From a candidate division WOR-3 bacterium (GTDB taxonomy: Bacteria > Hydrothermota > UBA3072 > B12-G15), in the NCBI GenBank assembly GCA_965649055.1, contig CBFGJG010000004.1:7654-71653 (forward strand): DNA of 64,000 nucleotides, written 5' to 3'. The notes beneath the pieces are model-generated. The model had not been told where the DNA came from. It saw only the letters and a program-made list of their open reading frames with translations, and searched no databases. This document shows positions 11,990 to 63,915 of the stretch, in pieces. The position numbers were made by a program, and so were the translations under genes. Numbering within the stretch: position 1 is the first letter of the stretch; each line of letters opens with the position of its first letter.

Positions 11990-12049
11990 AAATATAAAAT
12001 AACAAAATGTTATAATATGTCAATAAAAATTTAAACTTAAAAAAAATCC

Positions 12050-12078
12050 TTGACAAAATTTTAAAAATCATTTATAAT
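12050..12078 (+). promoter_or_regulatory. Consensus sigma70 promoter (TTGACA-17nt-TATAAT) reading rightwards into the non-coding repeat region
   Basis: Exact -35 TTGACA at 12050-12055, a 17-nt spacer, and exact -10 TATAAT at 12073-12078. Confidence 0.6.
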
Positions 12079-12200
12079 AAAAATACAAAATAAAAATTAA
12101 ATTCGCTCTTTGAAATTAGAATAGTTTTTTATACCGGATTAAGGGATAATTTATTACAAATTACTAACTTTGTAATAATTTTCCTGAACGACGCCTGAAG

Positions 12201-12341
12201 TTTTCCACATTTTTTCCACAACGAGATAACAAGTTATTGATAATAATTGAGTTATAGCGAAAATTAAAAAAAATTTCAAACTCATCGTCGTTGTGGTTCA
12301 AAATGAATGAGTTATGAAAAATGTGGATAAAATGTGGATAA
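12201..12341. promoter_or_regulatory. Cluster of four DnaA boxes in inverted arrangement (candidate oriC / DnaA-regulated element)
   Basis: Two TTTTCCACA boxes at 12201-12209 and 12212-12220, one mismatch from TTATCCACA. Two perfect TGTGGATAA boxes (the reverse complement of TTATCCACA) at 12322-12330 and 12333-12341. An inverted repeat ccacaacga/tcgttgtgg lies between them, and an extreme-AT tract lies at 12000-12120. Confidence 0.55.
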
Positions 12342-12405
12342 TTTTTAGGTCTGTGTCGGAAATGCCCTTATAAGTTATTGGTGTTAAATAACTTTCAAGG
12401 GGTGC

Positions 12406-12705
12406 TGTAGCAATCGAACTCCCGTAAGATCGGGATTGCAACCGCATCGATGAAATCGCTCAACTTCATAGCGTTCCTCCTTTGTAGCAATCGAACTCCC
12501 GTAAGATCGGGCTCGAAATAATGGGGACTAGGGATTAGGCATTAGGGACTGGTATATAATAAGTTTATATTTCGATAAAGAATAGATGTGAGAATATAAA
12601 TAAAATGCTTACAAGACTTTATAAGTCTATTAAATAACTAATCCCCAGTCACGAGTCCCCAGTCCCTAAAACACTCCCGTAATATCGGGCTCGAAATAAT
12701 GGGGA
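12406..12705 (+). repeat. Short direct-repeat family with hairpin potential (CCCG-N6-CGGG). Two identical 29-nt copies are separated by a 48-nt unique segment, followed by a third 33-nt partial copy.
   Basis: TGTAGCAATCGAACTCCCGTAAGATCGGG occurs at 12406-12434 and 12483-12511. ACTCCCGTAA[G/T]ATCGGGCTCGAAATAATGGGGA occurs at 12494-12527 and 12673-12705. GC-rich inverted repeats (…TTAGGGACTGG / CCAGTCCCTAA…) flank a ~110-bp AT-rich loop at 12523-12681. Confidence 0.5.
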
Positions 12706-12730
12706 TTAGAGACTTGTGGAATATGGAATA

Positions 12731-12856
12731 ATGTTAGTAGATGATTTGGATGTTTTTAAATTATCACATGGAATTTTATTAAAGGTTTATGAGCTAACGA
12801 GAGAATTTCAAAAAGATAAGATATTTAATTTAACAATGCAATTAAGACGGATATAA
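12731..12856 (+). pseudogene. Truncated four-helix-bundle protein gene (PF05635 / '23S rRNA intervening-sequence protein' / DGR Avd-like family), with a possible further decayed remnant up to ~12930
   Basis: The 41-aa ORF 'MLVDDLDVFKLSHGILLKVYELTREFQKDKIFNLTMQLRRI*' matches the N-terminal half of that family (…LxVWkkA.eLv.eIYklT.kFPkeEkFgLTSQlRRAAvSi…). A stop codon cuts it off where the family continues. Downstream, 'IEGGQKKIERQLLI' may be a frame-shifted remainder. Confidence 0.45.
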
Positions 12857-13205
12857 AGTTCTATATCTATAAATTAAATTGAGGGTGGGCAAAAAAAGAT
12901 TGAAAGACAATTGTTAATAATTTTTTTGATAATTTGAATCCTTATATAAACATTTTATAAATTTCAATCAGGTATTATTAATAGTCTGGTTAAACTATTT
13001 TCCTTAGAGTGTTTTACAATTTATAAACTCATCTGGAATTTCATTATTCAAAATATCAAATAAGCCATTTATTAGAAGATTCACATTAGCAATATTAATT
13101 TGGTTTCTTTCTTATATACAGATTAACAAAAAGGTGAATGGGCAGATTTTTAATGGTTAAGATAGCAATATATTTTGGGAAAATTAAAAAATAACAAAGA
13201 TTTAT

Positions 13206-53282: not shown

Positions 53283-53753
53283 ATGAAAATAGAGTTTATA
53301 AAAAAGCTTATTGAATTACTTGAAAATAGTAATATTAATGAGATAGAGATAAAGAGGTTCGGGACATCTCTAAGAATAGTAAAATTAAAAAATCAGATTA
53401 TCACAAATTTTCAGGAAACACCAAATCCGGTGAAGGTTCAGACACATCAGGTGAAAGAAAAGGAAGAAAAGGTAGAAACGAAGAAAGAAGAAGTAAAAGA
53501 GAAGAAAGATTATCTTATGATTAAATCTCCGATGGTTGGAACATTTTACAGGGCACCGGCACCAGATGCCCCACCTTTTGTTGAACTCGGTGATATTGTA
53601 AAACCAGGCCAGACTGTTTGTATTATTGAAGCTATGAAGATAATGAATGAGATAAAATCAGAATTTAGCGGTAAAATTGTTGAAATACCTGTTAAAAATG
53701 AACAACCGGTTGAATTTGGGCAGGTTTTATTCCTTCTTGAACCATTAAAATAG
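53283..53753 (+). CDS. accB: Acetyl-CoA carboxylase biotin carboxyl carrier protein
   Basis: Biotinyl-lysine motif '[10 protein letters not shown]' in the C-terminal lipoyl-like domain. Confidence 0.9.
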
Positions 53754-53761
53754 GAGGGAAA

Positions 53762-54856
53762 TTGGAGCTTAGACCCATTCTTGAAAAGATGGTAAAGATG
53801 GATGCTTCAGACCTGCATTTAAAAGTAGGTCTTCCACCTATTTTAAGGGTGCATGGAAGACTTACCCCTTTAAATATGCAGCCGCTTACCAATGATGACC
53901 TGAAGGAAGCTGCTGCTTCACTTATGACAAAACAACAACAGGAAGAATTTGTAAAGAGGAAGGAAGCTGATTTTGCTGTAGGATTGAAAGGTCTTGCAAG
54001 ATTCCGTGTGAACTGTTATGTCCAGAGGGGAAGTATTGCAATCGCGATGAGGACAATACCACACGTGATAAGGTCAATTGATGAGTTAAACCTTCCTCAA
54101 ATCCTGAAAGATATTTCCCTTTATCCAAGAGGGCTTATACTCGCAACGGGAACAACCGGTTCAGGTAAGTCAACAACACTTGCTGCAATGATTGAATACA
54201 TAAATCAGAATGTCTCGAAACATATCATAACAGTTGAGGACCCTATAGAGTATCTTTTCAGGGATAAAAAATCAGTGATTTCTCAAAGAGAGGTAGGAAC
54301 AGATACATATTCTTTTGCAGATTCACTGAGGTATATTTTAAGGCAGGACCCTGATGTTATAATGATAGGTGAGATAAGGGACGTTGATACAATGGATACT
54401 GCTCTAAAAGCAGCTGATACAGGCCATCTTGTTCTTTCAACATTACACACCTTAAATGCTGCTGAAACAATAAACAGGATTATAAGTTTTTATCCACCAC
54501 ACCAGCAACAACACATAAGGGTTTTACTTTCTGCAACACTTGTAGCTGTTGTATCATTGAGACTGCTCCCGCTTAAAGATAAAACTGGAATGATACCTGC
54601 AACAGAGATTCTTATCTCAACACCTACAATAAGGGAATATCTACTTGACCCTGTTAAAACATTGAAGATTCCACAGGCAATTACGGAAGGCAGTCAGTAT
54701 GGAATGCATTCATTTGACCAGTGTATAATGGATTATTATAAAAGGGATTTGATTGATTATGAAACAGCTATAAACAATTCGACTAATCCTGATGAATTCA
54801 AGATGAAGTTGAAAGGAATAGAAACATCCACTGAAGCAGGTTGGGGCGGGGCTTGA
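53762..54856 (+). CDS. pilT: Type IV pilus retraction ATPase PilT (TTG start with GGAGGG RBS)
   Basis: '[10 protein letters not shown]', 'ITVEDPIEY', '[16 protein letters not shown]' and '[10 protein letters not shown]'. Confidence 0.9.
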
Positions 54857-56196
54857 GTATAAAAAAATTACTTGTTGCAAACAGAGGTGAAATAGCGGTA
54901 AGAATTATAAGGGCTGCAAAAGAACTCGGAATAAAGACTGTTGCAGTATTTTCTGAAGGTGATGAGAATTCCCTCCATATATTCCTTGCAGATGAGTCCG
55001 TAAGAATAGGTCCAGCAAACCCAAAGAAAAGCTATCTTAATATACCAATGATAATAAGTGCAGCTGAGGTTTCAGGAGCTGATGCAATCCACCCGGGATA
55101 TGGTTTTCTTGCTGAAAATCCCGTTTTTGCAGATACATGCATTGATAGTGGTTTTATATTCGTTGGTCCTTCCCCTGATGCAATAAGAAAAATGGGTGAT
55201 AAATCAGAGGCAAAGAAGACAATGAAGCAAGCTGGTGTTCCTGTTGTCCCGGGGAGTGAAGAACCTTTAAAAAATGTTGAGGAGGCAATAGAGATTTCAA
55301 AAGAGATTGGTTTCCCTGTAATTCTAAAGGCAGTGAGCGGTGGTGGCGGAAAGGGTATGAGGGTTGCTTACAATGAAAAAGAACTTTATGCTAATTTTAG
55401 AATGGCTTCTTCAGAGGCAGAAGCAGCATTCGGTGACGGAAGAATATATATAGAGAAGTATATTGAGAACCCAAGACATATTGAGATTCAGGTCATGGGT
55501 GATATGATGGGTAATGTTGTTCATCTTGGAGAAAGAGAATGTTCAATCCAGAGAAAGCATCAAAAATTACTCGAAGAGGCACCTTCCACCATTGTGGATG
55601 AGAAAATGAGGGAAGAAATGGGAAGGATAGCTGTGAAAGGTGCAAAGAAAATAGGATATTATTCAGCAGGAACAATGGAATTTATTGTGGATAAGAATAA
55701 AAATTTCTATTTTATGGAAATGAACACAAGAATACAGGTTGAACATCCTGTTACTGAAATGGTGACAGGTTTTGATCTTGTAAAAGAGCAGATACTGGTT
55801 GCAATGGGAGAGAAACTGAGTTTTACTCAGAAGGATATAAGATTTAAAGGACATGCTATTGAGGCAAGGATAAATTCTGAAAGTCCCGAGAATGGTTTCA
55901 TACCCAGTGTCGGAAAGATAAATTCAATTCATATACCGGGTGGTAATGGTGTAAGGATTGACACACATCTTTATCATGGATACAATATTCCACCATATTA
56001 CGATTCCCTTATAATGAAGATAATTACACACGGAAGGGATAGGAATGAGGCGATTCTGAGGATGAAAAGGGTTCTTGATGAAATAATTATAGATGGTGTC
56101 CAGACAACGATAGGACTTCATAAAAAAATTCTTGAAAACGAAAACTTTCTAAAAGGTGAAATAAATACAAATTTTCTACAAACTATGGGTATATAA
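54841..56196 (+). CDS. accC: Acetyl-CoA carboxylase biotin carboxylase subunit
   Basis: '[17 protein letters not shown]', ATP-grasp 'GGGGKGMR' and '[14 protein letters not shown]'. Confidence 0.95.
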
Positions 56197-56792
56197 TGTC
56201 TATAATAAGATTTGGTTCAAGGGAAATAACCTGTAAGATAGTTTACTATGGACCCGGAAGGGCAGGAAAGACCACCAATCTCCAGTATCTTTATTCGAGG
56301 ATTCCAGCAACAAGAAGGAGCGAACTTGTATCCCTTGCAACGGAAACAGATAAAACGCTTTTTTTCGATTATATGCCAATAGATGTAGGCAATTACAGGG
56401 GTTTTACAACAAAATTTCAGCTTTATACAGTTCCGGGACAGGTTTTTTATGAGGATACGCGAAAACTTGTTCTAAAAGGAGCTGATGGTATCGTTTTTGT
56501 AGCAGATTCTCAAAGAGAAAGATTAGAAGATAATATTTTCAGTCTTGAGAACATGTTTCAAAATATGGAAGAAAATGGAATAGATATAAACGATACCCCT
56601 ATCGTTCTACAATATAACAAGAGGGACATGAACGATATTTGCACTATAGATGAGTTACAGGAAATATTAAATAAGAATTTCCTGTATGAATACTATGAGG
56701 CAATAGCAATAAAGGGAGTGGGTGTTCCTGAAACTTTTAAGGCAATAGGAACACTTGTTCTTAAAAATTTAAGGGAGAAATTAGGTCTATGA
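56196..56792 (+). CDS. mglA: Ras-like small GTPase MglA (mutual gliding-motility protein A family)
   Basis: 'CKIVYYGPGRAGKTTNLQYLY', 'LYTVPGQVFYEDTRKL' and 'GIVFVADSQRERL'. Almost co-linear with Myxococcus MglA hallmarks. Confidence 0.9.
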   Translation: MSIIRFGSREITCKIVYYGPGRAGKTTNLQYLYSRIPATRRSELVSLATETDKTLFFDYMPIDVGNYRGFTTKFQLYTVPGQVFYEDTRKLVLKGADGIVFVADSQRERLEDNIFSLENMFQNMEENGIDINDTPIVLQYNKRDMNDICTIDELQEILNKNFLYEYYEAIAIKGVGVPETFKAIGTLVLKNLREKLGL

Positions 56793-58519
56793 TTGAGGAT
56801 ACAGGACAATTTGATGATTTAAGGGTAGTTTTATCAAAACCCGAAAATTATGGTGTTGTTTATATTTACGGGGTAAACCAGGAAATTCTTTCGAATATAG
56901 AATATTTTATAAATTCTTCAAAGATAGTATTTTTAAAAATAAATGCAGAAAAATTAAAAGAAATTGACTTTTCGGGTATTGAATTACCAAAAGTTGTTCT
57001 GCTCCAGGATATTGAATATTTTGTAAGGAATCCTGAGGAGGAAAAATATTTTATCACATTAATTGAGAAATGCCTCAGGGAGAAAAAACAACTATTGATA
57101 ACAGGTATGTTTTCACTATCGGAGATAAAATTATCTGATAACGCAATGTTATATCTAAAACATATCTTCACGATTAAATTTGAACATAAAGACAAAAAAG
57201 GTGATCAGTTCACTGAAATTATAAAGACAATAGAACCTGATATACCTGAAATAAAACCCGAAAACAATATTGTTGAGGAATTGAGAGAAGAATATAAGGC
57301 AAAAATGTATATTTGGAAGATGAAGGGGTTTAACACATCAAGGATTGAAAGTGTTATTGATGGTAATATAGAGGCGATAACGAGTGAATTCATTTCTTTC
57401 ACAGCAGATATACAGAGGCTTATTGAACTGCAGAAAAGGTATGGAATATTGGAACTTCACATGATACCCGAGAAGGAAAAAATAGATATAGAGAAAAAAT
57501 TGTTTGACCCTGATAGCATATCAGAATTAGAGTACAAGATTTCTTTCTATGAGAAGAGGGCAACATTAAGAAACCAATTTAAATTAATGCTCTCCTGGGA
57601 TGAAAGAATGAATAGTGTTGAAGTTGATGAGAGCAATTCACAAATAGTTAGATTTATAACAAGCTTCTCACTTGAACCATATAAATATAAAGGTTTGAAC
57701 CTTATAAGGGGCGATAGAGGATTTGGTAAATCCACATACCTTAATATTACAGGAATACAATTATTTGAAAATTTTAGAAATCTTGTTATAGCATTTATAA
57801 CACCACATTCAATATTAAATATTGATGATTTTCTAAATGACCTTTCATATTTTGATATCGCACTTTTCGATGATATTGATAAGGTAATTTTTAGATATCA
57901 AAAGATTTTTTCAGATGATATACTCAGAATAATTTTTGACATGCCTGTCCTTGCTACTTTTACAAGCAAAGGATTTATCGATACTGTAAAACATTTTGAA
58001 ATAAAGAATAATTTTGAAATTAAAGAACCCGGGATTAAAATAAAAAGAAAGATGATAGAAAAAATAACAAACGATAGCAAGATTATTGAAATGGCAAACG
58101 AAGAAGTCCAGAAGATAAAAGGCGGTTTTTATGAAATAGAAAACCTGATATCAAATTTATATTACGAAAAGAAAGAAGAATTACCCTCAAAGGAAATAAT
58201 TGAAGAAAAAAAGGAAGTCGTTGAGATTAAGACAGAAGGTGAAGAAACGATAACAGAAATTCCAGAAAAAATAGATTTTAAAGAAGAAATCAAAGAAGAG
58301 ATAAAAGAAGAAATAGAAGAAAAATCGGAAGTTTCTGAAAAAATTATTGAAGAGAAGAAAGAAATTCAGGTTCCAAAGATCGAAAAGATAGAAGAAGAAT
58401 TACTCGAAGAAAAAGTAGCACCTGAAGAAACTAAAGAAGTTAAGAAAATAGAGTTTGTTAGCGAAGGTATAGTAATGGATATAGAAAATTATAGTTTAAG
58501 GATACAGAAGGAGCTGTAA
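56789..58519 (+). CDS. Protein with two tandem DnaA/Hda-like AAA+ modules (the first with a degenerate P-loop, the second with Walker A 'GDRGFGKST') and an E/K-rich repetitive C-terminus. Start overlaps the mglA stop (ATGA).
   Basis: The second module reads 'GDRGFGKSTYL…VIAFITPHS…DIALFDDIDKVIFRYQKIFSDDILRIIFDMPVLATFTS…NNFEIKEPGIKIKRKMIEKI'. It parallels DnaA domain III 'GGTGLGKTHLL…VVYMHSERF…[40 protein letters not shown]…GLTVAIEPPELETRVAIL'. The first module repeats the D-I-x-F…F…L…Q-L-L-I-T pattern without a Walker lysine. Confidence 0.5.
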   Translation: MIEDTGQFDDLRVVLSKPENYGVVYIYGVNQEILSNIEYFINSSKIVFLKINAEKLKEIDFSGIELPKVVLLQDIEYFVRNPEEEKYFITLIEKCLREKKQLLITGMFSLSEIKLSDNAMLYLKHIFTIKFEHKDKKGDQFTEIIKTIEPDIPEIKPENNIVEELREEYKAKMYIWKMKGFNTSRIESVIDGNIEAITSEFISFTADIQRLIELQKRYGILELHMIPEKEKIDIEKKLFDPDSISELEYKISFYEKRATLRNQFKLMLSWDERMNSVEVDESNSQIVRFITSFSLEPYKYKGLNLIRGDRGFGKSTYLNITGIQLFENFRNLVIAFITPHSILNIDDFLNDLSYFDIALFDDIDKVIFRYQKIFSDDILRIIFDMPVLATFTSKGFIDTVKHFEIKNNFEIKEPGIKIKRKMIEKITNDSKIIEMANEEVQKIKGGFYEIENLISNLYYEKKEELPSKEIIEEKKEVVEIKTEGEETITEIPEKIDFKEEIKEEIKEEIEEKSEVSEKIIEEKKEIQVPKIEKIEEELLEEKVAPEETKEVKKIEFVSEGIVMDIENYSLRIQKEL

Positions 58520-60117
58520 TGGCTATAAAGGGTTCATTAAAGGCAGCTTCTCTACCAGATGTGATACAGATGCTTTCTGTTGGAAGAAAATCAGGTGTTC
58601 TTAGTGTAACAAATGGAGAAATATTCATATTCATATATTTTGAAAAAGGTAAAATTACAGGTCTCGATTCAGTTAACAGACAATACAGGATAGGGGAATT
58701 GCTCATAAAGAATGGTAAGATAACAGAGGAACAGCTTGAAAGTGCACTATTAGTTCAGAAAGAAAACAAAGATAAATTACTTGGCGAGATATTACTTGAG
58801 ATGAAATTTATCGATGAGGATATATTAAAAAATGCAATAACAGAACAGGTTAAAGAAGGGCTTTACAGTGCATTTTCATGGGAAGATGGATATTTCAGCT
58901 TTGAACCAGGGGAAAGCAAGGTAAAAAAAGTAGGTAAAATCTCAATTGATGCACAGGACCTTTTACTTGAAGCAGCAAGGATAGTTGACGAGTTAAGTAT
59001 AATAGAATTACCTGGATATTCTGATATCCTTTTAAAGACAAAAACAGATACTGATGGTCTTAACGAAAAAGAGAAAGAGATTATAAATCTTATAGATGGG
59101 AAAAAGACTATGGAAAATATCCTTGATGAGACAAGAATTGATGAATTTGAAGCGATGAAGATTATTGGCAAATTATTACAAAAGGGATATATAAAAGGCT
59201 TGAAACAAACTTCTATACCGATAGAAAAGGCAATGGCGAAGATATCAGAGCATGAAAACCTTGGTATAGCATTTTTATATATGGAGATGTTCACCGAGGC
59301 GGAAAGAGAGTTTAGAAGAATACTTGAGATTGATCCTTTAAATGTTAAGGCAAAATTCTTCATAAGTATAATAAAATTTTTCAAAAATGATATTGATTCT
59401 GCTATTAGTCTTACTAAAGAGATAATAAATATGAACAATTTTTATCCATCTGTTTATGCAAATCTTTCTGTTTTTTATGAAAAGAAAGGCGAACTTGATG
59501 AAGCATTAAATATTATTGATGAAGGGCTTAAAAATTGGCCAGAAAATTCTAAGTTATTATTAAATAAGTTAATTATAAAAATAAAGAAAAACGAGATTGA
59601 GAATTTAAAAGAGATATTTGAGAAAATAAAAGAAACGGAGATAAACAATCCTGTTTTCTATTTTTATTACGGAATATATGAATGGAAGAATAAAAATTTG
59701 AATAATGCAATAAATATAATGCTTGAAGGTCTCAAGATTAATCCACAATTTCCCGAATATTACAATAATCTCGGCAGGTTCTACGAAGAAAGTGAAGAAT
59801 ACGAAAAGGCTGAAGCAATGTTTAAAAAGGCAATAGAAATAAAAAGTGATTACATCCCCGCAATTAAGAATATAGGTGATTTTTACTATAAAAATGGATA
59901 CTATTCACTTGCAAATGAGCAGTATGAGAAATTGACCAGTCTAAACTACAGTGATGCAGAGGTTTACTTTAAGATGGGAAACATTGCTCTTAAGAAGGGC
60001 GATTTCCACGATGCATATAAATTATGGAGTGAAGGATTAAATGTTGAACCTGATAATGAACTTTTGAAAAGGAATATAGAAATTCTTAAGAAAGATTATG
60101 GATTTGGAACTATATAG
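58519..60117 (+). CDS. DUF4388-like N-terminal domain + TPR-repeat protein
   Basis: 'SLPDVIQMLSVGRKSGVLSV…IYFEKGKI' fits the DUF4388 pattern. The C-terminal two-thirds consists of TPR-like repeats. Confidence 0.5.
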   Translation: MAIKGSLKAASLPDVIQMLSVGRKSGVLSVTNGEIFIFIYFEKGKITGLDSVNRQYRIGELLIKNGKITEEQLESALLVQKENKDKLLGEILLEMKFIDEDILKNAITEQVKEGLYSAFSWEDGYFSFEPGESKVKKVGKISIDAQDLLLEAARIVDELSIIELPGYSDILLKTKTDTDGLNEKEKEIINLIDGKKTMENILDETRIDEFEAMKIIGKLLQKGYIKGLKQTSIPIEKAMAKISEHENLGIAFLYMEMFTEAEREFRRILEIDPLNVKAKFFISIIKFFKNDIDSAISLTKEIINMNNFYPSVYANLSVFYEKKGELDEALNIIDEGLKNWPENSKLLLNKLIIKIKKNEIENLKEIFEKIKETEINNPVFYFYYGIYEWKNKNLNNAINIMLEGLKINPQFPEYYNNLGRFYEESEEYEKAEAMFKKAIEIKSDYIPAIKNIGDFYYKNGYYSLANEQYEKLTSLNYSDAEVYFKMGNIALKKGDFHDAYKLWSEGLNVEPDNELLKRNIEILKKDYGFGTI

Positions 60118-60868
60118 TCTTATGAAAACTATAAAAAATTTACTGGATTTCGATCCTATGAATTATAAGGAAAAACCTTTTAAAAGAAGAATAAGGGTAA
60201 GAATGAGGGCACTTGGGTTTGAAACATACAAAGAGTACGAGGAATATCTTAAAAATAATATAGAAGAACAGATTAAACTTAAAGATACCCTTACCATTAA
60301 TGTTAGTAAATTTTTCAGAAACTTAGAGGTATTTGAGATTATAAAAGATGAAATTATACCTAAGATTAAAGAACCTGTAAGATGCTGGAGTGCTGGATGT
60401 TCTACAGGTGAAGAACCTTATACAATTGCTATAATACTTAAAGAACTTGGTAAAGAGGGAAGAATAATAGGAACAGATATAGATACAGACGCACTTAAAA
60501 AAGCGAGGGAAGGCGTATACACTATTTTTTCTATGGACGAGATACCATACCAGTATATTAAAAAATACTTCGATGAGAAAGATGGAAAATATATAATAAA
60601 AGATTTTATAAAAAATTATGTTACATTCCTTGAACTCGATTTTAAAGATATTGAAAAATTTACAATGAAATTTGATATTATTCTTTGCAGAAATGTTCTT
60701 ATATATCTTACAAAAGAATTTCAGGAAAAATTAATAACAAGATTCTATGAATTGCTTGATGAAGGTGGTTTTTTAATACTTGGTATGGCTGAGACACTTG
60801 GTATTGGTAAATATGAATATTTTTTACCTTATAAATTAAAAGAAAGGATTTACAGAAAAAATGGATAA
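60098..60868 (+). CDS. cheR: Chemotaxis protein methyltransferase CheR (start possibly at Met 60122)
   Basis: 'RIRVRMRALGFETYKEY', SAM-binding 'RCWSAGCSTGEEPYTIAI', and 'ILCRNVLIYL'. Confidence 0.85.
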   Translation: MDLELYSLMKTIKNLLDFDPMNYKEKPFKRRIRVRMRALGFETYKEYEEYLKNNIEEQIKLKDTLTINVSKFFRNLEVFEIIKDEIIPKIKEPVRCWSAGCSTGEEPYTIAIILKELGKEGRIIGTDIDTDALKKAREGVYTIFSMDEIPYQYIKKYFDEKDGKYIIKDFIKNYVTFLELDFKDIEKFTMKFDIILCRNVLIYLTKEFQEKLITRFYELLDEGGFLILGMAETLGIGKYEYFLPYKLKERIYRKNG

Positions 60869-61337
60869 GATATTTGTCAAGATAGCAGAGATGAAAGCAG
60901 GTAAAGCCCCGAGTGTAATTATAACAATGGGGCTTGGTTCATGTGTAGCAGTTTCTTTATATGACAGAGCAAATAAATTTGGAGGGTTGCTTCACTTTTT
61001 ACTACCGGAAAATCCTTCTAATGATTCAAATTATTTTAAATACGGGGATAGTGGCATAAAAGAGATGATAAAATATTTTAGAAATAATGGCTCAAAATTA
61101 GAAAATATAGAGGCAAAAATAGTGGGTGGTTCAATTATGTTCACTCAACTTCTAAAAAGCACAGAGAATGCAGTTGGACCAAGAAATGTTAAGATAGCAA
61201 AAGAAATTCTTGAAAAACATAATATAAGGATTGTGAGTGAAGATACTGGCGGTGATTACGGTAGAAGTGTGGAATTTTATCTTGAAACAGGAGAATTAAA
61301 AGTTAGCTCTTATAAAACAGGTATAAAGATTATATGA
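60861..61337 (+). CDS. cheD: Chemoreceptor glutamine deamidase CheD
   Basis: 'GLGSCVAVSLYD' catalytic Cys motif. Size 158 aa. Confidence 0.85.
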   Translation: MDKIFVKIAEMKAGKAPSVIITMGLGSCVAVSLYDRANKFGGLLHFLLPENPSNDSNYFKYGDSGIKEMIKYFRNNGSKLENIEAKIVGGSIMFTQLLKSTENAVGPRNVKIAKEILEKHNIRIVSEDTGGDYGRSVEFYLETGELKVSSYKTGIKII

Positions 61338-62362
61338 AAACAATAAAGGTCCTTATCGTTGACGATTCTTCTTTTATGAGAAAACTTTTAAGAGATATAC
61401 TTGAGGCACATCCTGAAATAAAGGTTGTAGGGATGGCTAAGAATGGGGAAGAGGCAATACAGTTAAACGAAACACTCGAACCCGATGTTATTACAATGGA
61501 TGTAGAAATGCCTGTTATGAACGGAATAGAGGCAGTCCAGAAGATTATGGAATCAAATCCAAAACCAATAATAATGTTAAGTGCACATACAAGAGAAAAT
61601 GCAAAGATAACAATTGAGGCACTTGAGAAAGGTGCGTTTGATTTTGTCCCCAAGCCTGGAGGTGAGGTTTCTACAAACCTTATAAACATAAGTGAAGAGA
61701 TTACCGAAAAGATAAAGGCAGCATACTATGCTAATCTTCCAGCTTTGAGGGAGTCAGTATATTTGTCAAAGATTGAAAAACCAAGGGTATCTTCATCCCA
61801 AAAAGTTGTTGTTATTGCAAGTTCAACAGGAGGACCAAAAGCTTTATCATACATAATACCTAAAATACCAAAGGATTTTAATTCACCTATTATAGTTGTT
61901 CAGCATATGCCAGAAGGATTCACATCTGCATTTGCAGAAAGGCTTAAAAGTATAAGTAAATTGAATGTGAAAGAAGCAGAAGATGGTGATACAATAAAAA
62001 GAGGGAACATATACATTGCACCTTCCGGTTTCCATACAATAATAAACGAAGAAGAAAAGATAGTTCTTACGAGGGATAAACCTATACATGGTGTGAGACC
62101 TGCAGCTGATAAAACCATGGTATCCGCTGCTAATGTTTTCTTAAATAATACAATCGGAGTTGTTCTCACCGGAATGGGTAAAGATGGCGCTGTTGGTGTA
62201 AAAAGGATTAAAGCAGTAGGTGGTAAAAATATAGCACAGGATGAAAAAACATCAATAATATATGGTATGCCAAAAGCAGCATATGAAACAGGATGCGTTG
62301 ATGAAGTGCTACCACTTGAGAAGATACCGGAGGGCTTGCTCAGGATGGTTTCAGATGATTAA
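61334..62362 (+). CDS. cheB: Protein-glutamate methylesterase CheB (receiver + methylesterase)
   Basis: Receiver 'KVLIVDDSSFMR…DVITMDVEMPVMNG'. Esterase 'IASSTGGP', 'VVQHMPEGFT' and 'GMGKDGA'. Confidence 0.9.
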   Translation: MKTIKVLIVDDSSFMRKLLRDILEAHPEIKVVGMAKNGEEAIQLNETLEPDVITMDVEMPVMNGIEAVQKIMESNPKPIIMLSAHTRENAKITIEALEKGAFDFVPKPGGEVSTNLINISEEITEKIKAAYYANLPALRESVYLSKIEKPRVSSSQKVVVIASSTGGPKALSYIIPKIPKDFNSPIIVVQHMPEGFTSAFAERLKSISKLNVKEAEDGDTIKRGNIYIAPSGFHTIINEEEKIVLTRDKPIHGVRPAADKTMVSAANVFLNNTIGVVLTGMGKDGAVGVKRIKAVGGKNIAQDEKTSIIYGMPKAAYETGCVDEVLPLEKIPEGLLRMVSDD

Positions 62363-63116
62363 AGAGATAGAAGATATTGTAAGGAAAATAAAGAATTCAA
62401 AGGATAAAATGGAAATATCAGAAAATATAAAAAGATTTAAAAATCTTTATAACAAATATTTACAGTATCTTGAAGATATGAAAAAAGATGTAAACAAGAT
62501 AGAAGCAACTTTGTCAAGTTCAACTTTCGCTGAAAAACTTGTATTCTCACCTGTTGACGTTCAGACATTGATAGAAAAGGCAAAGAACGATATTGTGAAG
62601 GGAAATTACAACGATGCAATGAAGAATCTCCATCTCGCTAAAAAAATAGAACCGGAAAATATAAAAGTCTACTCATTACTCGGATGGGTTCTTCTTGAAC
62701 TTGAAAAATACGATGAAGCACTTGCAGTATACCAGAAGGTTTTGAAGTTAGATCCATCAAACGAAATAGCAATGGTTCATATTGGTTTTGTTAATTATAA
62801 ACTTGGAATTTTTGGTGAAGCAATTGAGAAACTCTCAAGGATAAATAAAGAGGGAAGAAATAAGGAAGCAGTCCTTTATTCCCTACTTTATCTTGGCAGG
62901 ATCTATTTTGAAAGGGAGATGTTCAACGATGCAATAGAGATACTTGAGGAGGCAATATCTTTAGGGCCAAATCTTTTTGAGGCTTACTATCTCTTGGGAA
63001 AGGCATACCTGGAAAAGGGGGATAGGAAAAAATGTGATGAGATTTGGGAGAAAGCCATTAGTAAAGGTATACAAGATAAATGGGTGGATAAGATAAAGGA
63101 GGAAAAAAATGGTTGA
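62355..63116 (+). CDS. TPR-repeat protein (start at ATG 62355 overlapping cheB stop; ORF-track N-terminal extension rejected)
   Basis: Several 34-aa TPR units ('YNDAMKNLHLAKKIEP', 'YDEALAVYQKVLKLDP'). Confidence 0.65.
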   Translation: MIKEIEDIVRKIKNSKDKMEISENIKRFKNLYNKYLQYLEDMKKDVNKIEATLSSSTFAEKLVFSPVDVQTLIEKAKNDIVKGNYNDAMKNLHLAKKIEPENIKVYSLLGWVLLELEKYDEALAVYQKVLKLDPSNEIAMVHIGFVNYKLGIFGEAIEKLSRINKEGRNKEAVLYSLLYLGRIYFEREMFNDAIEILEEAISLGPNLFEAYYLLGKAYLEKGDRKKCDEIWEKAISKGIQDKWVDKIKEEKNG

Positions 63117-63915
63117 AGAATACTGGGGTTTAAGGAGCAAACCATTTTTAAATACGCCTGATTTAAAATTCCTTTTTAGAAGTGAAGATTTTAAAGAGGG
63201 ATATGCAAGGATTATTTATAACATAAACGAGATTAGTGGTGGACTCACCCTTATTACAGGTGAAATTGGTTGCGGGAAAACATATCTTGCAAATGCGTTG
63301 AAAAAAGACCTTACTGAATTCGGTCATAAGGTGATATTTGTAACTAATCCTATATTTACACAGACTGGTTTTGTGAGATGGATTGCTGAAAATTTTCTCG
63401 AACAGGAAAAAGTTCCTTATCAGAAAGTTAAAATTTTTACAGCACTTGAGAATATGCTTAAAGAAAATGCAAATAAGGATAAAAAATATATAGCGATAAT
63501 AGACGAGGCTCAGATATTAAAGGCTAAGGTCCTTGAAGAAATAAGATTACTGTTGAATATTGAATCAGATGAAAAGAAATTAATTCAGATAATATTGCTC
63601 GGTCAACCTGAAATAGAAAAAAAGATTGAGAAGATGCCACAGATAAGACAGAGGATTAATATAAGATACCATATAGAACCAATGGATGAAGAAGAGGCTA
63701 TATTGTATATTGAACACAGATTAAAGGTTGCAGGTGCAAAAAAGGAAATATTCAATGATGAGGCTAAAAAAACATTGTATAAATTAAGTGGTGGTATACC
63801 CAGGAATATAAATACTCTTGCGCAAAACTCTTTATTTGTAGGCTATAGCCTGAAAAAAGATGTTATAGACAAAGAAATAATAGAAGCAGTTGCTGAAGAT
63901 TTAAGGATGGTGTGA
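63109..63915 (+). CDS. ExeA/GspA-like AAA ATPase (AAA_16 family)
   Basis: 'LITGEIGCGKTYL', 'IIDEAQ' and 'LLGQPEI…L…RI' are typical of ExeA/MshM-type ATPases. Confidence 0.7.
   Translation: MVEEYWGLRSKPFLNTPDLKFLFRSEDFKEGYARIIYNINEISGGLTLITGEIGCGKTYLANALKKDLTEFGHKVIFVTNPIFTQTGFVRWIAENFLEQEKVPYQKVKIFTALENMLKENANKDKKYIAIIDEAQILKAKVLEEIRLLLNIESDEKKLIQIILLGQPEIEKKIEKMPQIRQRINIRYHIEPMDEEEAILYIEHRLKVAGAKKEIFNDEAKKTLYKLSGGIPRNINTLAQNSLFVGYSLKKDVIDKEIIEAVAEDLRMV

Follow-up and report, generated by a model that had tools for sequence, protein, structure and literature searches.

A DnaA-derived AAA+ protein family encoded between mglA and a PATAN/TPR gene in uncultured candidate phyla

The mglA locus and its overlapping gene

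MglA modules are the main bacterial model of front-rear polarity governed by a small GTPase, and their parts comprise Roadblock GTPase-activating proteins (GAPs), RomR/RomX and TPR effectors. To our knowledge, no AAA+ ATPase has been reported among these parts. The DNA described here is a stretch of 64,000 nucleotides from a candidate division WOR-3 bacterium (contig CBFGJG010000004.1 of assembly GCA_965649055.1), referred to below as the window, in which an mglA gene (56196-56792, + strand) encoding a Ras-like polarity GTPase of 198 amino acids overlaps a gene for a protein of 576 amino acids (56789-58519, + strand) that combines DnaA-derived tandem AAA+ modules with a helical domain, termed here the WKMKGF domain. 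Judged from its homologues, this 576-residue open reading frame (ORF) belongs to a bacterial protein family that has not been described, and it evolves fast. The stop codon TGA of mglA (56790-56792) shares bases with the ATG at 56789 of the second ORF (ggtctATGAttgag), so that the two ORFs and their coupling through ATGA are as described in an earlier reading of this DNA made from the letters without database searches (hereafter the sequence-only reading).

The product of mglA matches MglA of M. xanthus (PDB 5ymx) with E = 1.9e-71 over residues 1-194 and the T. thermophilus structure 3t12 with E = 3e-64. It keeps TVPGQ (as YTVPGQ), NKRD and Q82, features by which MglA is recognised, the deviation being the replacement of R53 by K, and by these matches the gene is a genuine MglA. 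R53 is the intrinsic arginine finger of MglA; the position is K in the window, Q in four related loci (L031-L033 and L039 in the numbering used here) and R in all other relatives, and Q82 is kept in every relative compared. The replacement of R53 may alter the kinetics of the GTPase. R53K as a mark of the loss of the partner protein MglB was considered and rejected, as R53 is kept in relatives without MglB and Q53 occurs in the MglB-containing loci L031-L033 and L039; because MglB-less relatives retain both R53 and Q82, R53K is best taken as a quirk of the window sequence.

Domain anatomy of the 576-residue protein

The protein starts with module 1 (56816-57187, residues 10-133), a degenerate DnaA-type alpha/beta core, followed by the central helical WKMKGF domain (57263-57589, residues 159-267), which is the family signature, and by module 2 (57635-58183, residues 283-465), which comprises an AAA+ core and a lid; an E/K-rich disordered linker (58184-58465) and a conserved C-terminal peptide (GIVMDIENYSLRIQKEL, 58466-58516) complete it, all on the + strand. 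Every motif singled out by the sequence-only reading was recovered in place, namely the module 2 Walker A GDRGFGKST (57710-57736, residues 308-316), the Walker B IALFDDIDKV with its FDDID core (57857-57886, residues 357-366), PVLATFTS (residues 386-393) and FEIKEPGIKIKRKMIEKI (residues 409-426).

The ablated P-loop that had been proposed for module 1 takes the form of a 4-residue deletion (VVYIYGV----NQEIL), which in the alignment falls exactly at the GxxGxGK[ST] of the relatives and removes Walker A. Module 1 has furthermore lost the two box VII arginines and its entire lid, and it retains a Walker-B-like VVLLQDIEYF. In module 2 of the window protein, Walker A and Walker B are present, and neither a box VII arginine finger nor a sensor II arginine is recognisable in the alignment. 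Compared with an active AAA+ ATPase, module 1 falls short, so that in the window lineage it is best regarded as a pseudo-ATPase, and only module 2 plausibly binds ATP; with no arginine finger recognisable, module 2 probably switches slowly or serves a structural purpose only.

The linker had been described as a long E/K-rich repeat, of which the composition stands and the repeat does not. Glutamate and lysine make up 54% of residues 465-560, for which the predicted local distance difference test score (pLDDT) is below 50, and the only repeat reported by Tandem Repeats Finder (TRF) is a 12-nt unit in 3.9 copies at 58280-58325. Because there is one short repeat only and the pLDDT is below 50, the region is classed as low-complexity and disordered. 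The linker is E/K-rich in the window and proline-rich in other clades.

The invariant residues of the family all lie in the central domain (E168, Y169, K172, W176, K177, M178, K179, G180, F181, L211, I212, L214, Q215, G219, E230, E235, L238, F239 and P241). The C-terminal peptide follows the consensus [FW]xxxx[ED]R[LI]x[EK][ED][FYL]-COOH and forms the extreme C-terminus of most members, short and long, with SFRLIEDF, NERIFEDF and DRLMEDF as examples and SLRIQKEL as the form in the window.

Definition of the family and its distant relatives

A hidden Markov model (HMM) search of 1.84 billion representatives at E <= 1e-30 returned 171 proteins, and 164 of these were retrieved for domain counts. 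A single central domain was found in 57 of the 164, which constitute the bacterial family and come in two sizes, 380-500 amino acids with a single AAA+ module (short forms) and 570-1170 amino acids with two (long forms). The family was defined by one or more DnaA-type AAA+ modules, a central domain in single copy, a disordered linker, the C-terminal peptide and a PATAN/TPR gene downstream, and the central domain by the pattern E-Y-x-x-K-x-[YF]-[IV]-W-[KE]-M-K-G-F ... L-I-x-L-Q-x-x-[YF]-G ... L-F-x-P; the window protein has every one of these features. The signature of the family is the helical WKMKGF domain of approximately 90 amino acids together with the linker and the C-terminal peptide, not the ATPase; the central domain and the terminal peptide went unremarked in the sequence-only reading. 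No account of the family or of its pairing with MglA was found in full-text literature on MglA, MglB, PATAN/DUF4388, DnaA-like AAA+ proteins and the carrier phyla, which agrees with the statement of the sequence-only reading that such a partner was not known.

Another 20 of the 164 proteins carry 2-11 tandem central domains. Among them, giant proteins (P0036, P0038, P0041, P0056, P0071, P0078, P0100, P0109 and P0115; loci L041-L044) have 5-11 tandem WKxxG[FY] domains, and several of the multi-copy giants, 1,100-1,400 amino acids long, have at their C-terminus a complete DnaA ATPase domain (PF00308, 236 bits in P0036) and a double zinc ribbon. One of their loci, L043, has an archaeal context of S6e, aIF2-gamma, SRP54 and RFC, without mglA or che genes. 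The helical domain, present once in the window protein, and its pairing with a DnaA-type AAA+ module are common to the giants and the window protein; the giants differ in their many repeat copies and their genomic context, and they form a likewise uncharacterised family of DnaA-domain proteins in archaea-like genomes. A comparison of the N-terminal domain of the giants with PATAN, which would have meant a fusion of PATAN to this family, gave an hhalign probability of 7% over the expected segment.

Descent from DnaA domain III

Taken alone, the window protein matches the relevant profiles below their thresholds, with E = 0.51 and 11 bits against a cut-off of 23 for PF00308 and E = 0.025 and 14 bits against 194.8 for the Hda model TIGR03420, and a profile of the four-member close clade alone found no DnaA in PDB. 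The closest link is to P0004 (E = 3e-55), a match that covers 84% of the window protein, and other relatives are matched with E values of up to 1e-19. These relatives are 24-34% identical to it and score 55-150 bits with PF00308, with P0006 matched by both modules. Against the DnaA model TIGR00362, relatives reach E = 1.5e-63, confined to DnaA positions 100-336, i.e., domain III. The family profile retrieves from PDB the DnaA domain III (8bv3, E = 1e-28) and Hda (1e-10) with module 1 and the helicase loaders DnaI (4e-6) and DnaC (2e-5) with module 2, and DnaA is the top structural match of the predicted model of the window protein. A second homologue search by word index, run with the alignment, gained just two ordinary DnaA proteins. 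Because the direct profile matches are sub-threshold, the link to DnaA was drawn by way of distant homologues and of the predicted structure; by this transitive route the case is solid that the two modules descend from the DnaA branch of AAA+, and the DnaA/Hda-type descent put forward by the sequence-only reading is borne out.

Module 1 alignments across 40 members reveal a gradient of motifs. Near-verbatim DnaA motifs are kept in loci labelled Edwardsbacteria/UBP2 (GVGLGKTHL, DDLHL, LLSRLLGG and SNVRELEGALNR), L037 among them having the DD of Walker B, LLSRFQGG in box VII and SNVRELEGALNR in sensor II. The WOR-3/TA06-type short forms keep Walker A, Walker B and RxxSR and have lost the sensor II arginine, and the window clade, which consists of the window protein and P0001-P0003, is without the module 1 Walker A, the box VII arginines and the lid. 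Most family members retain the Walker A and B motifs and RxxSR in box VII.

Descent of this kind does not make the family a DnaA. The DnaA equivalog is defined by a cut-off of 343.9 bits, domain I and the domain IV family PF08299 (Bac_DnaA_C); the best relative reaches 215 bits over positions 100-336 only, and no family member matched domain IV or domain I. The place of domain IV is taken by the WKMKGF domain, and the beta2-beta3 stretch, which bears the initiator-specific motif in DnaA, is shortened in all members. Unlike DnaA, the family is thus without domains I, II and IV, from which no binding to DnaA boxes would be expected, its AAA+ part is fused to the WKMKGF domain, to a disordered tail and to a terminal peptide, and its gene lies in a motility operon; of the two modules of the window copy, one is dead and the other is without an arginine finger. 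The family differs from Hda/HdaA in falling below the equivalog cut-off (50-113 bits in relatives versus 194.8), in its architecture, which is different from and larger than the single module of approximately 230 amino acids of Hda, in its non-replicative context and in having no clamp motif (QL[SP]LPL-like or QLxLxL) in the first 30 residues of any member. On these features the family is neither DnaA nor Hda.

The sequence-only reading had also raised a coupling of MglA to replication status and pointed to a cluster of DnaA boxes at 12.2 kb. A Hda- or DnaA-like regulator that couples polarity to replication could draw on the ancestry in DnaA domain III and on the annotation of relatives as "chromosomal replication initiation ATPase DnaA", but the missing domains and clamp motif, the scores far under both equivalog cut-offs, the shortened initiator-specific stretch and a context that is solely motility and chemosensory in all loci speak against it, and such a role is considered highly improbable. 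The boxes themselves are four DnaA-box-like 9-mers within 140 bp (12201-12341, in the intergenic gap 11990-13174), two of them perfect TTATCCACA and two TTTTCCACA, and they sit exactly where the GC skew changes sign and gene orientation flips. Across the window, DnaA boxes occur at chance level (26 found versus 24 expected), and the cluster probably marks the chromosomal origin. Coupling through these boxes was rejected, since they are intergenic, at the switch in GC skew and 44 kb distant from the family gene.

A conserved gene neighbourhood

The stop codon of the 576-residue ORF overlaps the start of the next gene as TAATG (58517-58521). This gene (58519-60117, + strand) encodes a PATAN (DUF4388) protein of 532 amino acids with TPR repeats that scores 113 bits with PF14332 (E = 1e-32; cut-off 25) and matches TPR families. 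It is followed on the + strand by cheR (60098-60868), cheD (60861-61337) and cheB (61334-62362), which were assigned by synteny in tblastn and by Pfam matches in L001, L002 and L045.

A scan of one genome per GTDB species, in which the pattern itself required WKMKGF, yielded 38 species-level loci, all of them from metagenome-assembled genomes (MAGs) with labels including WOR-3, TA06, Stahlbacteria, Cloacimonadota, Edwardsbacteria and UBP2; every carrier found is uncultured. In the 35 loci with upstream sequence, mglA lies upstream of the family gene in 33, covering at least six candidate phyla, and the distance between the two genes is -8 to +2 nt in 25 loci (L001 and L002 counted in). The downstream order PATAN/TPR, cheR, cheD and cheB holds in every locus with sequence there; beyond cheB the operon continues with TPR, AAA_22 and cheW genes and, in L003, also a gene for a methyl-accepting chemotaxis protein (MCP), and accB-pilT-accC stands ahead of the cluster in most loci. 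The gene is fixed, in candidate phyla, within the order [mglB]-mglA-gene-PATAN/TPR-cheR-cheD-cheB-TPR-AAA_22-cheW, beside pilT. Chance adjacency is ruled out because the gene order persists at 24-34% protein identity. A missing AAA+ relationship and an unconserved pairing had been named as grounds for discarding the sequence-only reading; both were looked into, and what was found is the descent described above and a pairing that recurs across species-level genomes.

The MglB question

In the window, neither tblastn nor a pair of HMMs made from the related loci found a Roadblock-fold gene (best E of 0.35 and 0.86), the absence having been noted before, and in 27 related loci (L003-L029) no MglB-like gene lies within ±8 kb of the locus. 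The 576-residue protein itself is no MglB, as it has no match to the Roadblock family PF03259 and a different fold. The idea that the AAA+ gene stands at mglA instead of mglB does not hold for the family, since MglB-like or Roadblock genes occur in the same cluster in 11 loci (L030-L040). An MglB-like gene encoding 135 amino acids lies between mglA and the family gene in L031-L033 and L039; in L030 and L034-L038, two genes with PF03259 matches stand ahead of mglA, one of them a Roadblock gene (E = 3e-8) and the other MglB-like (E = 6e-5); and the MglB-like gene of L040 shares bases with the start of the family gene. The short and the long forms of the family each occur both with and without MglB. 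Because MglB coexists with it in these 11 loci, the family protein is understood as an additional partner and not a substitute.

The clusters of L030 and L034-L038 (Edwardsbacteria/UBP2) are richer, with an extra PATAN protein approximately 1-3 kb upstream of mglA, and the same region encodes a protein of approximately 340 amino acids with a Roadblock-like segment (E of approximately 1e-10 with the Roadblock HMM made from the related loci), a Roadblock protein of 113 amino acids and an MglB-like protein of 190 amino acids. The MglB-less arrangement of the window and L003-L029 looks like what an older, richer cluster would leave once mglB had been lost or moved elsewhere.

MglB resembles the family gene in being encoded beside mglA, often with translational coupling, and differs in having a Roadblock fold where the family has AAA+ modules and a helical bundle; their coexistence indicates that the two are no equivalents. 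A functional replacement of MglB, in which MglA would have the AAA+ protein as its GAP or guanine nucleotide exchange factor (GEF) where the Roadblock GAP is missing, maybe by supplying an arginine in trans, would accord with the MglB-less loci, with the translational coupling to mglA and with the lysine at the place of the intrinsic arginine finger in the window MglA. It is nevertheless regarded as unlikely, given the coexistence with MglB, the occurrence of both forms with and without it, the R53 and Q82 kept in MglA of MglB-less relatives and the loss of the box VII arginines in the window protein itself.

A proposed scaffold and the alternatives to it

The family protein is proposed to be a nucleotide-dependent scaffold or adaptor that would tie MglA to the PATAN/TPR and Che module for the control of pili, a reading to which a probability of roughly 0.5 is given. 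In this proposal, the AAA+ part would self-associate in an ATP-dependent manner, the invariant helical domain is the candidate docking surface for MglA, and the tethered C-terminal peptide would plug into the TPR domain of the neighbouring PATAN/TPR protein or into CheR/CheB. The result would be a GTPase switch and chemosensory adaptation enzymes linked to the PATAN domain.

Several MglA systems offer parallels. According to Milner and colleagues in 2014, Bd2492 of Bdellovibrio is reportedly an MglA-linked TPR protein. Like RomR-RomX, SgmX and Bd2492, which are MglA-associated polar scaffolds or effectors, the family protein joins a folded module to long disordered regions and conserved terminal segments, and with SgmX and Bd2492 it shares the TPR theme, the PATAN/TPR gene here being directly downstream. 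The difference is that none of these systems contains an AAA+ ATPase, and no similarity of sequence or fold to RomX or RomR was detected in the family protein. PATAN regulators bind the pilus motor ATPase PilB1 in Synechocystis (bioRxiv 10.1101/2021.06.11.447907), and PATAN recurs in the gene neighbourhoods of MglA and MglB (PMC4316618). A survey of prokaryotic Ras-like GTPases found variable neighbourhoods for the group 1 MglA proteins and mentioned only PATAN (PMC4316618). A TPR protein acting as an MglA-linked regulator of pili is known in SgmX of M. xanthus (PMC7519303, PMC13408092).

The loci without mglA weigh against the scaffold proposal. The gene is absent from L040, L047, L048 and the P0025 contig, and only a remnant is present in L023; L047, L048 and the P0025 contig run from thiE through the family gene to PATAN/TPR and, where the sequence reaches, cheRDB. 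Because some clusters are without mglA, MglA is not an obligate partner, and the most constant neighbour is PATAN/TPR with cheRDB, not MglA. The remnant in L023 (7142-7320, in a Cloacimonadota MAG) consists of just the first ~18 codons of mglA (MALTKYATRKIICKIVYY) between accC and the AAA+ gene and reflects either a true deletion or an error of assembly.

The protein may instead be an accessory of the chemosensory array or of PATAN/TPR, with Che and PATAN/TPR as its true partners and MglA as a mere frequent passenger of the operon. This is possible though not favoured. In its favour, the gene is followed throughout by PATAN/TPR and cheRDB, even where mglA is missing (L047, L048, the P0025 contig and L040). 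It also fits the overlap of the family stop codon with the PATAN/TPR start and the flexible linker that leads to a conserved acidic/aromatic C-terminus (IFEDF, LIEDF, LMEDF), which would resemble the MCP pentapeptide that recruits CheR/CheB or the EEVD-type peptides bound by TPR domains. The C-terminus of the window clade, RIQKEL, misfits the xWxxF pattern of the pentapeptide, however, and the immediate upstream position of mglA in all but two informative loci, with codons overlapping or abutting, counts against it. The accessory role also overlaps with the scaffold proposal and does not exclude it.

A lead on the surface contacted by MglA comes from the signature itself. WKMKGF is present in all 38 GTDB loci, as the search pattern forced it to be, and mglA is in most of them; a subgroup of the family (P0020, P0022-P0025, P0028 and P0030) has WEMKGF in its place, and all three clusters of this subgroup that were examined (L047, L048 and the P0025 contig) are without mglA. 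A tie between the WKMKGF surface and MglA is a lead of this kind, and it counts against leaning on it that the correlation of K or E with mglA consists of three loci, probably one clade, and that the scan pattern chose WKMKGF.

The pace of change in the window lineage is a further point against the scaffold proposal. The window protein is 59% identical to its orthologue in L045, and PilT, MglA, AccC, CheB and PATAN/TPR are 81-94% identical, so that the 576-residue gene is the fastest-evolving of the operon and constraint on it is relaxed in this lineage. A decaying remnant with little or no function in the window lineage would be in keeping with this pace, with the loss of Walker A, arginine finger and lid from module 1 and with the sub-threshold profile matches of the protein. 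Against decay stand the intact frame of 576 codons, kept in the four clade members at 59-72% identity, the conservation within the clade of the central domain, the module 2 Walker A/B and the C-terminal peptide, and the preserved overlaps of start and stop codons; decay is judged quite improbable.

A bolder reading is put forward speculatively, in which a DnaA-derived ATPase would represent a new partner class for a Ras-like GTPase, its ATP-state-dependent oligomer either marking the pole or regulating MglA in the manner of a GAP or GEF in bacteria without MglB in the operon, and with the tail reaching to PATAN/TPR and to CheR/CheB. If this reading is true, an ATP switch would be wired to a GTP switch, and together with the pairing of a DnaA ATPase and WKxxGF domains in the archaeal-type giants it would point to an old non-replicative role of DnaA-type modules in cytoplasmic scaffolds.

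Neighbouring genes in the row

The + strand between 52.5 and 63.9 kb of the window is an unbroken row of genes that starts with a thiD-like gene. Ahead of mglA lie accB (53283-53753, biotin carboxyl carrier protein), a pilT-like gene for a type IV pilus retraction ATPase (53762-54856; PF00437 T2SSE, E = 3e-47) and accC (54841-56196, biotin carboxylase), all on the + strand; the odd position of the pilT-like gene, wedged between accB and accC, is kept in most related loci of several candidate phyla.

Within the PATAN/TPR protein (58519-60117), a helical insert in the PATAN/DUF4388 domain (residues 57-110) matches NF053729, the MshEN-type motif that binds cyclic di-GMP (c-di-GMP), with 54.5 bits against a cut-off of 38, which suggests an input of c-di-GMP into the module. 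After cheB, the operon continues on the + strand with a TPR protein (62262-63116) and an AAA_22 ATPase (63109-63915), a pair that precedes two cheW genes in L045. The pair at 62262-63915 presumably recalls MshN/MshM of the MSHA pilus operons.

Significance

On its gene content, the locus is a module of the MglA/Che/type IV pilus kind in which one component, derived from DnaA, had so far gone unrecognised. The annotations given to members of the family, "chromosomal replication initiation ATPase DnaA" and "DnaA domain-containing protein", mislead analyses of origins and replication in MAGs of candidate phyla. A DnaA-derived ATPase without DNA binding, fixed between mglA and a PATAN/TPR gene in several phyla, would give MglA polarity modules a component of a new type, and it would be a clear case of a replication-initiator fold reused outside replication.

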